In this document: positions 3,077 to 30,150 of the stretch, piece after piece | Layout: every line of letters begins with the position of its first letter | How positions within the stretch are numbered: position 1 is the first letter of the stretch | DNA from: Woeseiaceae bacterium | Lineage (GTDB): Bacteria; Pseudomonadota; Gammaproteobacteria; Steroidobacterales; Woeseiaceae | Assembly: GCA_041587435.1 (NCBI GenBank) | Contig: JBFGYM010000001.1 | Coordinates: forward strand, 1-56,933 | Length of the DNA: 56,933 nucleotides | Direction of reading: 5' to 3' | Notes under the pieces: generated by a model | Told to the model about the DNA's origin: nothing | Seen by the model: only the letters and a program-made list of their open reading frames with translations | Database searches by the model: none | Made by a program: the position numbers and the translations under genes

Positions 3077-4467
3077 TCAGGCTCCGCCGCCGCGTGGGTG
3101 TCGGGTTCGAACAACGCGCGCAGCTGCTTCAGCGCCGACTCTGCGTCGACACGCCGGTTGCGGTGCTGGCGCAGAAAGTCGAGCATCCGGGGCCACAGCG
3201 CAATCGCTTCGTCGAGCTGCGGATTGCTGCCGGCCTGGTAGGCCCCGATCGAGACCAGGTCGCGGTTTTCGCGGTACGTCGAATACGCCTGCCTGAAACG
3301 CATCACCAGTTGCTGTTGGGCATCGGACGTGAACTGGTTCATCGCGCGACTGACCGAGGATTCGACGTCCACGGCCGGGTAGATGCCTGCATCCGCCATC
3401 TCTCTCGACAATACGATGTGTCCGTCGAGAATCGCGCGCGCCGCATCGACGATCGGGTCGGTGTGGTCATCGCCTTCGGCAAGGACCGTGTAGATCGCCG
3501 TGATCGAGCCGCCTCCTTCCGCGCCGTTGCCGGCGCGCTCGACAAGCTGTGGCAGCTTGGCGAATACGGAGGGCGGATAGCCTTTGGTCGCCGGCGGTTC
3601 GCCAATGGCGAGCGCGATCTCGCGCTGCGCCTGGGCAAAGCGCGTCAGTGAATCCATGAGCAGCAACACGTTGTTGCCCTGGTCGCGAAAATACTCCGCG
3701 ACGGCGGTCGCCAGCCACGCGCCGTGCAGGCGCATCAGCGGCGTATCGTCGGCCGGCGTCGCGACGACGACCGAGCGCCGCATACCCTCGTCGCCGAGCG
3801 AGTGTTCGATGAACTCGCGCACTTCCCGGCCTCGTTCGCCGATCAGTCCGACGACGACGATGTCCGCTTCGGTGTTGCGGGTCATCATGCTGAGGAGCAC
3901 GCTCTTGCCGACGCCGCTGCCCGCGAACAGGCCGAGGCGCTGGCCGCGCCCGACCGACAGCAGCGAGTTGATCGATCGAATGCCGACGTCGAGCTGCTGC
4001 CGAATGGGTTGCCGCCGCAACGGGTTGATCGTCTCGCCCATGAGCGGCACCGATGTCGTCGACGCTATCGGTTTGCCGCCGTCCAGCGGCTTGCCGCGGC
4101 CGTCGAGTACCCGGCCGAGCAAGTCGCCCCCGACCGCGATCTTCGGCGCTTCGGCCACCGGGATGACGCGCGCATTGGGCACGACGCCGCGCATGTCGCC
4201 GATCGGCATGAGAAACAGGCGCTCGCCGGCGAATCCGACCACTTCGGTCTCCACCCGCCGTCCGTCCGTGGCCACCACGTCACAACGCCCTCCGAGTGCC
4301 GCGTGGCAGCCTTCCGCCTCCATCGCGAGGCCGACCGTGCGGCGCAGCAAGCCCTCGACGACGAGTTCCGGCGCGTCGTCCAGGGCGCGATCGATGTATC
4401 GCCCGAGCCGCAGGCTGCGCTCGAGATTGCGGTTCCCGTCGGGCCCTGCGATCACGTCCGCGCTCAT
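3073..4467 (-). CDS. fliI: Flagellum-specific ATPase FliI
   Basis: Walker A GSGVGKSV and Walker [12 protein letters not shown]3SS/F1-type ATPase. The ORF-track start 4602 is replaced by ATG 4467 (MSADVIAG...), which overlaps the fliH stop as ATGA. Confidence 0.93.
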
Positions 4468-14529: not shown

Positions 14530-15678
14530 TTACTGCAGCAGGCTCAGAGCCAGCTGCGGCTGGGCATTCGCCTGCGAGAGGACGGCAACGCCAGCCTGCT
14601 GCAGGATCTGTGCCTTGGTCAACGCTGCCGTTTCTGCGGCGAAGTCGGCATCCTGGATGCGGCCACGAGAAGCCGACAGGTTTTCGCTGACCGTCTGCAG
14701 GTTCACGATCGTCGACTCGAAGCGGTTCTGGATAGCACCCAGGTTGCCGCGCAGGCCGTTGACCGCCGTCAGGGCAGAGTCGATGCGTGCGATCGCGAAG
14801 TTGGCGTTCGACACCGAGTCAACACCCAGGCCGGCCAGCGTCGTGGCTGCGGACACAGCCTCGGCAGCGGTCGTCACGCCTGCCAGGCCAGTCACGTTGC
14901 CCGCTCCGCCAACGGCTTCGGTGATTGCGACACCGGGATCGTCAGACAGAACCTGAAGAAACCCGAGGTCGTTCACGAACGCTGAAACGCCGCTAATGTT
15001 TGCGCCGTTGATAGCATCCGCAGCTTCCTGGATGGTCGCACCGGCAGCGACATTAACAGTGCTGGCAGCGCCTACTGCAGGCGTGAATGTGAGCACTGTA
15101 TCGGCCGTTCCCGGCGCCGTAACCGTGTCCATGGCGTAAGCCACACCGGATACCGTGTTGACCGTACCGATCGCACCGGCGGTGACGTCCGTCGTCAGGG
15201 AGACCGAAATCGTCTCGCCGACGTTGGCGCCGACCTGGAACACAGCCGTGCCGAACGAACCGTCGAGCACTTTCACGCCGTTGAAGTTCGTCTGCTTGGC
15301 AATGCGGTCTACCTCGGCGATGCGTTCCTGGACTTCGGCGTTCAGGGCTGCGCGGTCAGAGGCCGAGTTCGTGGCGTTGACCGATTGCACGGCCAGCTCA
15401 CGAATGCGCTGCAGGTTGTTGGTCAGCTCGCCGAGTGCGGACTCGGTCGTCTGCGCGAGGGAAATGCCGTCCGAAGCGTTACGAACAGCCTGGTCCAGGC
15501 CGCGGATCTGCGTCGTGAAACGCTCCGAGATCGCGAGCCCGGCCGCATCGTCCTTGGCGCTGTTGATGCGCAAACCTGTCGACAGACGCTCGAGTGCCGT
15601 GTTCATCATGCCCTGCGAGCGGCTCAGGTTACGCTGCGCGTTCAGCGATGCAACGTTGGTGTTAATCGTCTGTGCCAT
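14530..15678 (-). CDS. fliC: Flagellin
   Basis: 382 aa. Conserved N-terminus MAQTINTNVASLNAQRNL...LRINSAKDDAAGLAISERF. Conserved C-terminus ...LTKAQILQQAGVAVLSQANAQPQLALSLLQ. Ala/Thr/Val-rich variable centre. Confidence 0.95.
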   Translation of the reverse strand: MAQTINTNVASLNAQRNLSRSQGMMNTALERLSTGLRINSAKDDAAGLAISERFTTQIRGLDQAVRNASDGISLAQTTESALGELTNNLQRIRELAVQSVNATNSASDRAALNAEVQERIAEVDRIAKQTNFNGVKVLDGSFGTAVFQVGANVGETISVSLTTDVTAGAIGTVNTVSGVAYAMDTVTAPGTADTVLTFTPAVGAASTVNVAAGATIQEAADAINGANISGVSAFVNDLGFLQVLSDDPGVAITEAVGGAGNVTGLAGVTTAAEAVSAATTLAGLGVDSVSNANFAIARIDSALTAVNGLRGNLGAIQNRFESTIVNLQTVSENLSASRGRIQDADFAAETAALTKAQILQQAGVAVLSQANAQPQLALSLLQ

Positions 15679-15777
15679 TTGGTTAAACTCCTGTCTAAAG
15701 ATATTCCCGGTCTCGCAAGAGCTGCCGGAAGTCCGTCAACGGCCCGGAATCCGACCCGGAACCATCGTACACAGGGT

Positions 15778-26353: not shown

Positions 26354-27208
26354 ATGGACGGAGAACACATGCCAGCAGGAAACCGGCAAAACGCCGGGAA
26401 ATTGACGGCCGCAACGGCCGGGCGCCATCAATCCGGCGGCCTGGCGCGGCTGCTGCCGGTGCTCGCGCTGGTGCCCTGCGCGGCGGCCACCGCGATCGAC
26501 TGGCATCCGACCGACGACATTGCCCGCACGGCCGAAGCTTTCCTGGCCCGCCACATGAACAGCGGTCCGGACACGACGGTGGCCGCCTCGACCCTCGACA
26601 CACGGCACCGCCTCGCACGCTGCGACCGCCCGCTGCAGGGATTTCTGCGCGACGGCGTGGAAGTCGCAAGGCGAACCATCGTCGGCGTGCGCTGCGCGGG
26701 CAGCCGTCCGTGGAAAGTCTACGTTCCGGTCGAGGTGGCGGTCTCGGCCACGGTGCTGGTGGCAAGCCGGCCGCTGCCGCGCGGCCACGTGCTGACGGCG
26801 GCCGACGTGCGCGAGGAGCGGCGCGATGTGTCGCGATTGCGCCGCGGCTACCTGTCGGATCTCTCGCAACTCGCCGGGCAGCGCCTCAAGGTGCCGCTGC
26901 TGGCCGGCAAGGTTCTGACGCCCGGCCTGCTCGAATTCGATCGCGTCATTCGTCGGGGCCAGTCGGTGACGGTGATCGCGAACAGCGGCGGTATCGCCGT
27001 CAGCATGGCCGGAACCGCCCTCACCGACGGCGGCCTGAACCAGCGAATCCGCGTCGAGAACGCCAATTCGGGGCGCATTATCGAGGGTATAGTCCGCTCC
27101 AGGGAGCACATCGAAGTGCTGGTACCGGATGGGGCCGGTTTATTTCGCGCTAAATCTAAAGTATCGCCAGCGGTGGCCGATACGGGGATTAGCAACAATG
27201 ATCGTTGA
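26354..27208 (+). CDS. flgA: Flagellar P-ring assembly chaperone FlgA
   Basis: Signal-peptide-like N-terminus. FlgA/SAF-type core (RPLPRGHVLTAADV...GQRLKVPLLAGKVLTPGLL...RGQSVTVIANSGGIAVSMAG...RIRVEN). Divergent from flgB. The start may be ATG 26369. Confidence 0.85.
   Translation: MDGEHMPAGNRQNAGKLTAATAGRHQSGGLARLLPVLALVPCAAATAIDWHPTDDIARTAEAFLARHMNSGPDTTVAASTLDTRHRLARCDRPLQGFLRDGVEVARRTIVGVRCAGSRPWKVYVPVEVAVSATVLVASRPLPRGHVLTAADVREERRDVSRLRRGYLSDLSQLAGQRLKVPLLAGKVLTPGLLEFDRVIRRGQSVTVIANSGGIAVSMAGTALTDGGLNQRIRVENANSGRIIEGIVRSREHIEVLVPDGAGLFRAKSKVSPAVADTGISNNDR
27157..27183 (+). promoter_or_regulatory. Sigma28-type promoter of flgM-flgN, inside the 3' end of flgA
   Basis: TAAA-N15-GCCGATAC, 38 nt upstream of the flgM ATG. 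An internal-to-flgA position is classic for flgM class III promoters. Confidence 0.7.
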
Positions 27209-27220
27209 GGTTTATACGTT

Positions 27221-27550
27221 ATGACAAACAGGATCGGTCCTATGGATCAGGGAACATTGGGGAAAATCGGCAGCAAGGTCGACGAGTCGCGGTCGCTGGC
27301 CAAGGGCGAGCCCGCGAAAGCCGCGCCCGACGCAGCGCCCGCTTCGTCGGCTCGCAGCGACGAGACGGTCAACCTGACCAATGACGCCAAGCTGCTCGCG
27401 CGGCTCGACAAGGCGCTCGAATCGCTGCCGGCGGTCGATCAGCAACGCGTTGCCGAGATCAAGGCGGCGATTGCCAGTGGCGAGTACGAGATCGACGCCG
27501 ACGCCATCGCGGATGCCATGATTCGCCTCGACCGCTCGTTCGGAGACTAG
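27221..27550 (+). CDS. flgM: Anti-sigma28 factor FlgM
   Basis: 109 aa, low complexity N-terminus. C-terminus RVAEIKAAIASGEYEIDADAIADAMI is the FlgM signature. Confidence 0.9.
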   Translation: MTNRIGPMDQGTLGKIGSKVDESRSLAKGEPAKAAPDAAPASSARSDETVNLTNDAKLLARLDKALESLPAVDQQRVAEIKAAIASGEYEIDADAIADAMIRLDRSFGD

Positions 27551-27552
27551 TC

Positions 27553-28044
27553 GTGCCGATAATCTCCCCGGATTTCGCTCGCGAAGAGATCGTCAAGCTT
27601 TTGAACGACATGGTCTACGAGGCGCTGGGCCTCAAAGAGGCGCTCGCGGAGGAGCGCAATGCGCTGCAGGATGCCCAGATGCAGGGACTCGGCGACGCGG
27701 TCAAGCTCAAAGCTGCCTGCGTCGATGCGCTGACCAAACTCGACGACCGGCGCGACGCCCTGTGCCGCTCCTGGGACTTTGCGTCCGGCTCCTCGCAAAT
27801 GCAGGCTGTCATCGAGTGGTGCGATGACGGCGGGCTCGTCGGCGACCTGTGGGACCACCTGATGGTGATTGCCGCCGAATCCAACGCCATGAACCTGACC
27901 AACGGCGCCGCCATCCGAGCGCGAGCGCAGCAGATCGAATCGAGCCTTGCCGTGCTTCGCGGCAAGGAGCCCGGTGTCGGCACCTACGGCCGGCAGGGCG
28001 AGTCGACCGGCGACCTGGGCCAGCAGTCGCTGGCGCAGGCCTGA
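27553..28044 (+). CDS. flgN: Flagellar chaperone FlgN
   Basis: 163-aa helical protein with a GTG start 2 nt after the flgM stop. Position and FlgN-like sequence (LLNDMVYEALGLKEALAEERNALQ). Confidence 0.8.
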   Translation: MPIISPDFAREEIVKLLNDMVYEALGLKEALAEERNALQDAQMQGLGDAVKLKAACVDALTKLDDRRDALCRSWDFASGSSQMQAVIEWCDDGGLVGDLWDHLMVIAAESNAMNLTNGAAIRARAQQIESSLAVLRGKEPGVGTYGRQGESTGDLGQQSLAQA

Positions 28045-28069
28045 GCAGGCCGGATTCAGGGCAACCGCC

Positions 28070-28273
28070 ATGCTGATCGTGAGCCGACGCGACGCGGAGT
28101 CTCTCCTGATCCGGCCCGGTGAAGGCATCGACCCGAGCATGACGCTGGCCGACCTTTTTCGGGACGGCCCGATCGAGATCCGGATTTTTTCATCCACGCA
28201 CGACCGCGTGAAGATGGGCATCCAGGCGCCGACAGCGCTGTCTATCTGGCGCAAGGACGCAGACCCCGCCTGA
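28070..28273 (+). CDS. rsmN: CsrA-family RNA-binding protein of the RsmN/RsmF topology
   Basis: 67 aa from ATG 28070: MLIVSRRDAESLLIRPGEGIDPSMTLADLFRDGPIEIRIFSSTHDRVKMGIQAPTALSIWRKDADPA. It has a CsrA-like beta1 (LIVSRR). A helix-like insert precedes the remaining strands. The (V/M)GI-APxxxxIxR core is conserved. The N-terminal part of ORF 27947..28273 overlaps flgN and is rejected. Confidence 0.7.
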   Translation: MLIVSRRDAESLLIRPGEGIDPSMTLADLFRDGPIEIRIFSSTHDRVKMGIQAPTALSIWRKDADPA

Positions 28274-28320
28274 ACCTCGCCCTACGTCGAATTGCCTACT
28301 GCTTTTCGCCGCCGCATCCG

Positions 28321-28326
28321 TATAAT
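28321..28326 (+). promoter_or_regulatory. Candidate -10 hexamer for pckG
   Basis: Perfect TATAAT in an otherwise GC-rich intergenic region, 61 nt upstream of the pckG ATG. No convincing -35 at 17 bp. Confidence 0.3.
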
Positions 28327-28386
28327 CGCGGAAAAGTTTTACCGGAAACCATCTGTCCGGAATTCCTTCAAGAAAGACGGCGGCAC

Positions 28387-30150
<1,764 letters not shown>

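Follow-up and report, generated by a model that had tools for sequence, protein, structure and literature searches.

The ancestral function of CsrA is considered to be the control of flagellin and to be tied to FliW, as in the CsrA-FliW-flagellin switch of Bacillus subtilis, Campylobacter and Borrelia. The csrA gene of B. subtilis shares its transcription unit with flgM and flgN (yvyG). Gammaproteobacteria are thought to have given up the FliW-CsrA link in favour of sponge RNAs; their canonical CsrA is domain-swapped, carries a C-terminal helix and is usually encoded in an alaS-csrA-tRNA neighbourhood. RsmN (RsmF) of Pseudomonas aeruginosa is the product of an orphan gene between PA5183 and PA5184 (PMC3791407) and has been described as Pseudomonas-specific, derived from a duplication of rsmA (PMC3791407, PMC7366521). 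In a heterologous assay, P. aeruginosa RsmN, not RsmA, repressed translation of B. subtilis flagellin (PMC12247646). In the literature searched, no paper joined RsmN and flgN. The locus described here carries an RsmN-fold paralogue in what appears to be the sigma28-dependent flgMN operon of a FleQ/sigma54/sigma28 lineage without FliW.

The window (the whole stretch of DNA analysed, 56,933 nt, from a 2.04-Mb Woeseiaceae MAG that is 71% complete) contains at 28070-28273 an ORF encoding the protein MLIVSRRDAESLLIRPGEGIDPSMTLADLFRDGPIEIRIFSSTHDRVKMGIQAPTALSIWRKDADPA (67 aa), which an earlier note had read as a CsrA paralogue. That reading was borne out. The protein matched the Pfam CsrA profile (PF02599) at 37.5 bits against a cut-off of 27, placing it in the CsrA/RsmA family; its residues 1-63 aligned to positions 1-46 of the 53-position profile, equivalent to an insert of ~17 residues with the C-terminal helix region missing. 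The NCBIfam equivalogs for canonical CsrA gave 31 bits against a cut-off of 73 and matched the C-terminal half only, as is expected of a divergent paralogue. The CsrA RNA-contact set (L2/L4/R6/R7 in the first strand, GxxAP and the R44-equivalent Arg) was found as L2, V4, R6, R7, G50-I-Q-A53-P54 and R61, with V4 standing where CsrA has L4 and R61 being the equivalent of CsrA R44 and RsmN R62. Over 49 diverse homologues (alignment A1), L2, R6 and F30 were invariant and M1, G33, I35, A53, P54 and R61 were conserved in at least 90%; R7 was kept in at least 90% of 47 Woeseiaceae orthologues. The gene is under purifying selection (dN/dS ~0.09, 47 orthologues), and its GC3 of 0.82 is similar to that of the adjoining genes. 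Coordinates are collected in Table 1.

Table 1. Features of the locus and of its candidate target, in positions of the window.
Feature	Position	Strand	Basis or remark
flgA (P-ring chaperone)	26354..27208	+	Pfam ChapFlgA, 120.5 bits
sigma28-type promoter, TAAA-N15-GCCGATA	27157..27182	+	within the flgA 3' end, ahead of flgM; sequence read
flgM (anti-sigma28 factor)	27221..27550	+	Pfam FlgM, 64.3 bits; TIGR03824, 73.4 bits
flgN (FlgK/FlgL export chaperone)	27553..28044	+	GTG start; Pfam FlgN, 63.9 bits
flgN-rsmN spacer, 25 nt	28045..28069	+	GGA at -19..-17; CAGGGC ahead of the ATG
rsmN/rsmF-fold csrA paralogue	28070..28273	+	ATG 28070, TGA 28273; 67 aa plus stop
pckG (GTP-dependent PEP carboxykinase)	28387..30150	+	downstream of the rsmN-like gene
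fliC (flagellin), proposed main target mRNA	14530..15678	-	ORF; orthologues of 59-83% identity in flagellated relatives
fliC sigma28-type promoter, TAAA-N15-ACCGATAA	15778..15804	-	sequence read; leader ~96 nt
candidate binding site 1, hairpin CCGGG-UCGGAU-UCCGG	15744..15759	-	GGA in hexaloop; minimum-energy fold
candidate binding site 2, fliC Shine-Dalgarno GACAGGAGUU	15686..15695	-	GGA within the Shine-Dalgarno; sequence read

Alignment and structure prediction against RsmN/RsmF and CsrA, as the earlier note had proposed, gave a CsrA-like fold with the strand order of RsmN/RsmF. The AlphaFold2 model (alignment A1, pLDDT 89.7) was ordered b1-b2-helix-b3-b4-b5, with predicted strands at residues 2-7, 11-16, 36-43, 46-52 and 57-62 and a predicted helix at 26-32; as in the RsmN/RsmF subfamily, the helix lay between b2 and b3 with none at the C-terminus, and just 5 residues remained after strand 5 before the protein ended at residue 67. 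The best four Foldseek matches in the PDB were RsmF/RsmN structures (4k59, 4kji, 4krw; TM 0.73-0.79, rmsd 2.2-2.6 A, probability 1.0), and all other PDB matches had E>1. When PDB chains were searched with the single sequence, RsmF 4k59 and RsmN 4kji likewise came out on top (residues 2-63 collinear with 7-67), at a weak E of 0.05. The A1 profile of 49 homologues matched the same two chains at E 2.6e-13, collinear across the insert (2-67 against 7-71 of RsmF, with a single 1-residue gap), while canonical CsrA chains aligned to this profile in two separate pieces only, 1-15 and 35-64. Because profile, model and Foldseek results agree on RsmF/RsmN, the RsmN/RsmF topology claimed in the earlier note is confirmed at the level of alignment and predicted structure.

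The gene was also said to lie directly behind flgM-flgN with a sigma28 promoter at 27157, and its position agrees with this: the element at 27157-27182 is a perfect match, and neither a terminator nor a sigma70 promoter was called by scans of the 25-nt spacer between flgN and the rsmN-like gene. The latter is thus probably co-transcribed with flgMN from the sigma28 promoter, as far as can be read from the sequence. The other genes of the window are fleQ, fleS, fleR, fliF, fliG, fliS, fliD, fliC and flgB-L; with fleQ, fleS and fleR present, the proposed FleQ/FleSR sigma54 hierarchy is therefore real. Close relatives of the protein (72-82% identity) are encoded at 46 genome loci, nearly all from Woeseiaceae or unclassified Gammaproteobacteria and from sediments. 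The order flgA-flgM-flgN-rsmN-like was intact in 44 of these 46, the sigma28 promoter was at the same position in 44/45 loci, and an AAGGA-type Shine-Dalgarno stood 8-12 nt ahead of the rsmN-like ATG in 45/46; the gap from the flgN stop to this ATG was 15-53 nt in the 27/45 loci whose flgN stop could be located. Across the loci FlgN was 31-60% and FlgM 42-71% identical, against 72-82% for the RsmN-like protein, which makes the latter the best-conserved product of the unit. The flagellar position extended to more distant homologues: a gene of 54% identity (L125) also followed flgA-flgM-flgN and was itself followed by a PilZ gene, and Woeseiaceae genus g9 (55% identity) showed the same placement.

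Additional copies and elements were noted at some of these loci. In L030 (155-352) a second, divergent flgA-flgM-...-rsmN-like module (60% identity) is arranged head-to-head with the first, and in L045 (4001-4192) a second rsmN-like copy occurs by itself, flanked by a ParA-like gene and a Csu/SCPU-type pilus operon. One sub-clade (L017, L023, L024, L025, L031, L047) carries a hairpin, GCGGGCA-AGGA-UGxCCGC, ~20-45 nt past the rsmN-like stop, whose sequence CAAGGAUG matches the CsrA SELEX consensus; the hairpin is absent from the window, and in L017 and L023 a GC-rich hairpin comes next after it. It may act as a site of autoregulation or as a decoy within the 3' UTR of the rsmN-like gene, or it may belong to the leader of the next gene. 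A gene for a predicted lipoprotein of 284 aa separates the rsmN-like gene from pckG in most relatives (e.g. L006 4256-5110); it is missing in the window, L002 and L034, leaving spacers of 113-180 nt to pckG. The spacer of the window (28274-28386, 113 nt) holds a TATAAT box and two GGA motifs, ACCGGAAAC and UCCGGAAUU.

The phyletic distribution was determined in 41 Woeseiaceae genomes of 15 genera. FlhA was found in 26/41 and the rsmN-like gene in 19/41, distributed as 19/26 FlhA+ versus 0/15 FlhA- genomes (Fisher p = 2.7e-6); genera g5 and g14 each contain genomes with and without the gene. Its distance to flhA was 32-52 kb wherever the assembly was contiguous. Since the gene is located at the border of the flagellar cluster, its loss together with flagella may be due in part to physical linkage. 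Seven flagellated genomes were without it, namely those of genera g3 and g12 and one of g9 whose assembly is fragmentary; in genus g3 an amidase-like gene stands directly behind flgN. A 2.8-Mb assembly without FlhA (L002, genome G440) retains an intact rsmN-like gene (region 3940-4400) with 180 nt between it and the downstream pckG; ahead of it lies what looks like a short leftover of the flgN 3' end (last codons), and a DinG-like helicase gene, tsaB and a phoB-like gene occupy the place where the flagellar cluster would be. The role of the gene may therefore not be purely flagellar. FliW (PF02623) was detected in 0/41 genomes, the source genome included, with B. subtilis and Thermotoga as positive controls; the absence of fliW that the earlier note had remarked on in the window thus holds for this genome and for 40 other Woeseiaceae genomes.

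The frequent proximity of pckG raises the question of a classical "carbon storage regulator" role, in which the RsmN-like protein would regulate pckG and gluconeogenesis. Such a role would account for pckG lying on the same strand within 0.1-1.5 kb in 32/46 loci, for the adjacency of the two genes in the FlhA-less L002 and for the two GGA motifs ahead of pckG in the window. It is very improbable, however, as the lipoprotein gene intervenes in most relatives and presence of the rsmN-like gene tracks flagella across Woeseiaceae.

Canonical CsrA (~87-95 bits, contiguous match) was present in ~32/41 genomes of the family, among them all three near-complete members of the source MAG's genus, and was not found in the source MAG, where its absence is probably due to incompleteness (71% complete); the search for a canonical csrA thus came out negative for the MAG and positive for most of the family. 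Genus g3 (G002, G016, G028, G038) has, beside canonical CsrA and away from the flagellar cluster, a third CsrA-type match of 65.9 bits that covers profile positions 1-42 only (e.g. G016:C1:400452-400577). With canonical CsrA so common in the family (~90 bits), with RsmN and RsmA overlapping functionally in Pseudomonas (PMC3791407) and with seven flagellated genomes managing without the gene, the RsmN-like protein might be a largely redundant paralogue that shares the targets and function of canonical CsrA and owes its place behind flgN to an accident of inherited gene order. We consider this improbable: the sequence is far better conserved than those of its flagellar neighbours, with a low dN/dS, the sigma28 operon position is kept in 44/46 loci and in the homologue of 54% identity, and the gene was in none of the sampled FlhA- genomes.

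Rsm-type sRNAs were not recovered. RsmY and RsmZ (RF00195, RF00166) gave nothing over the gathering score in the source genome and 12 relatives, and sub-threshold matches were no better than those in the E. coli and B. subtilis controls. An Rfam scan of the whole window returned no match, and GGA-dense 140-nt windows across the 2.04-Mb MAG fell mostly in coding regions and yielded no convincing sponge RNA, an absence that means little as the MAG is 71% complete.

The leader of fliC was analysed as a candidate target. It contains four GGA in ~96 nt; one is in the loop of the upstream hairpin (candidate site 1), and the Shine-Dalgarno AGGA was predicted to lie in the loop of a small hairpin (minimum-energy fold). 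A homologue of the upstream hairpin was found in 8 other gene-carrying genomes (genera g1, g4, g5, g11 and g14), with the RNAalifold form GGUCUUGA-AUGGAUA-UCGCGACC and GGA in the loop, so that the element is common to nine genomes of five genera when the source genome is counted. It showed no compensatory changes, and the whole fliC leader folds no better than shuffles (z = -0.94). Among genomes with the rsmN-like gene, GGA is absent from the hairpin in genus g8, and the GGA hairpin was not seen in g9. Of the two g15 genomes sampled, one showed no such hairpin, and the second has further GGA motifs in its fliC leader. Genomes of g3, without the rsmN-like gene, have other GGAs near the fliC Shine-Dalgarno, where CGGAAGGAG was noted. 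A sigma28 promoter with a leader of 85-97 nt was found at 21/25 Woeseiaceae fliC loci (L095-L120), the -10 box of the other four (G032, G007, G009, G023) having been mislocated or missed by the script. In the leaders of these 21 loci a second conserved hairpin, CCGGCGGC-AUAA-GCAGACCGG, lies ~30 nt upstream of the Shine-Dalgarno. The GGA sites of the leader are compatible with control by the RsmN-like protein and do not discriminate, as the canonical CsrA of relatives could use them equally; by analogy, the repression of B. subtilis flagellin by P. aeruginosa RsmN cited above lends indirect support.

The RsmN-type fold was then followed beyond the family. Searching the whole library with phmmer gave 213 representative clusters (50% identity) at E<=1e-3, and among the best 150 of the 213, nearly all were collinear over positions 1 to ~63; a profile search of a set of 5.8 billion proteins was saturated with near-identical Woeseiaceae proteins. 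Full-length collinear matches occurred in at least 10 other gammaproteobacterial families (sample of 400 genomes), where the neighbours examined were non-flagellar: a TagF-like type VI secretion protein with RNase HII, a Ser/Thr kinase with a C39 peptidase, MvaT, DUF1015, DUF6498, a Mu-like prophage protein and an S4-domain protein. Metagenomic homologues of 45-54% identity adjoin LysR, EAL, GGDEF+MCP or SRAP genes, and several distant homologues lie on contigs too short for gene context. The neighbours in L069 (family f5; TagF-like) and in L072/L073/L075 (family f53; Ser/Thr kinase and C39 peptidase) recall Pseudomonas, in which RsmA/RsmF are known to control type VI secretion. Tandem RsmN-type proteins with two domains per chain, which would be covalently linked pseudo-dimers, were seen in metagenomes (P0124, 154 aa; P0138, 202 aa; P0151, 123 aa). 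As far as sampled, the fold is widespread and its flagellar linkage is confined to Woeseiaceae and close kin. In the other gammaproteobacterial families the examined neighbours of RsmN-fold genes are not flagellar, and the link to flagella thus looks like a recruitment specific to this lineage, in line with the independent recruitment that had been suggested. The same fold and a homologous insert in Woeseiaceae, a widespread family of marine sediments, and in at least 10 other families point to an older, broader CsrA lineage; if true, the RsmN fold would be old and widespread rather than a Pseudomonas invention.

These neighbourhoods bear on a further reading, modelled on the global action of RsmA/RsmN in Pseudomonas. 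The protein could be an output of the flagellar regulon, made late and directed chiefly at transcripts outside the flagellar system (those for adhesion, pili, c-di-GMP signalling and secretion), with completion of the flagellum switching a lifestyle programme. The intact copy of L002, the extra paralogue beside Csu/SCPU-type pilus genes in L045 and the EAL, GGDEF+MCP, PilZ and TagF genes that adjoin distant RsmN-fold genes fit this reading, as does the binding of hundreds of transcripts by P. aeruginosa RsmN (PMC6061880). The gene is nevertheless strictly limited to flagellated genomes in the 41-genome sample, the GGA hairpin is conserved in fliC leaders and no candidate non-flagellar target emerged, and we regard such an output role as unlikely.

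Our preferred reading is that the RsmN-like protein controls translation of flagellin or other late flagellar mRNAs, to which we assign a probability of roughly 0.55. The ORF product would be an RNA-binding CsrA-family protein that forms dimers and has the RsmN/RsmF fold, encoded by the last gene of a sigma28-dependent flgM-flgN transcription unit; being last in this unit, it is proposed to be made only after completion of the hook-basal body and export of FlgM. By analogy with the rest of the CsrA family, its most likely ligands are GGA motifs in hairpin loops and in Shine-Dalgarno sequences. The best candidate target would be the ~96-nt fliC leader with its GGA-loop hairpin and GGA Shine-Dalgarno, and other late mRNAs may be bound as well. 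Sigma28 would then activate fliC and, in parallel, an RsmN-like repressor of fliC (sigma28 -> fliC plus sigma28 -> RsmN-like -| fliC), a feed-forward loop that could serve as a brake or timer on flagellin translation without FliW. What we infer here, besides co-transcription with flgMN, is that the protein binds RNA, which transcript it targets and in which direction it regulates. The placement of the gene behind flgMN suggests a FliW-independent coupling of translational control to flagellum assembly. In a more elaborate form of this scheme, which we think doubtful, the coupling would be a FliW-less flagellin checkpoint, with a protein antagonist of the RsmN-fold protein that is encoded in the same operon or belongs to the export pathway. 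This antagonist, for which FlgN set free by export of FlgK/FlgL, FlgM and FliS would be candidates, would stand in for FliW or sponge RNAs. If true, such a checkpoint would link to the effect of FlgN in Salmonella, where FlgN is described as stimulating translation of class-3 flgM mRNA by an unexplained mechanism (Karlinsey et al., 2000, cited in PMC4054197).

Three described systems serve for comparison. Canonical CsrA/RsmA of Gammaproteobacteria resembles the Woeseiaceae protein in Pfam family, RNA-contact residues and probably GGA recognition, but is encoded by a separate gene that relatives carry besides the rsmN-like one. RsmN/RsmF of P. aeruginosa (4kji, 4krw, 4k59) has the same b1-b2-helix-b3-b4-b5 order without a C-terminal helix, an insert equal in length and place, the R62-equivalent Arg and the GxxAP motif. 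The Woeseiaceae protein is, however, merely ~29% identical to RsmF over the aligned stretch, and its family is much wider than the Pseudomonas-specific RsmA offshoot of the literature. RsmN works in the Gac/Rsm network with RsmY/Z sponge RNAs, whereas the Woeseiaceae gene ends a putative sigma28 flgM-flgN unit in genomes where no RsmY/RsmZ exceeded the Rfam threshold (13 genomes); neither the genomic setting nor the RsmY/RsmZ control that would mark orthology to the Pseudomonas Gac/Rsm proteins was found.

The CsrA-FliW-flagellin switch differs from the Woeseiaceae system in fold topology and in its partner: Woeseiaceae have no FliW (0/41), and the protein has no C-terminal extension for binding it, because it stops 5 residues past strand 5. 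In both systems a CsrA-family gene belongs to a late flagellar operon (sigma28/sigmaD; putative in Woeseiaceae), and the flagellin leader combines a GGA hairpin with a GGA Shine-Dalgarno; the late-operon position and the two-GGA leader were both found here, the upstream hairpin being present in some but not all gene-carrying genomes. The Woeseiaceae locus would thus offer a natural test of how CsrA-type control can become coupled to flagellar assembly anew and of which factor takes over from FliW.
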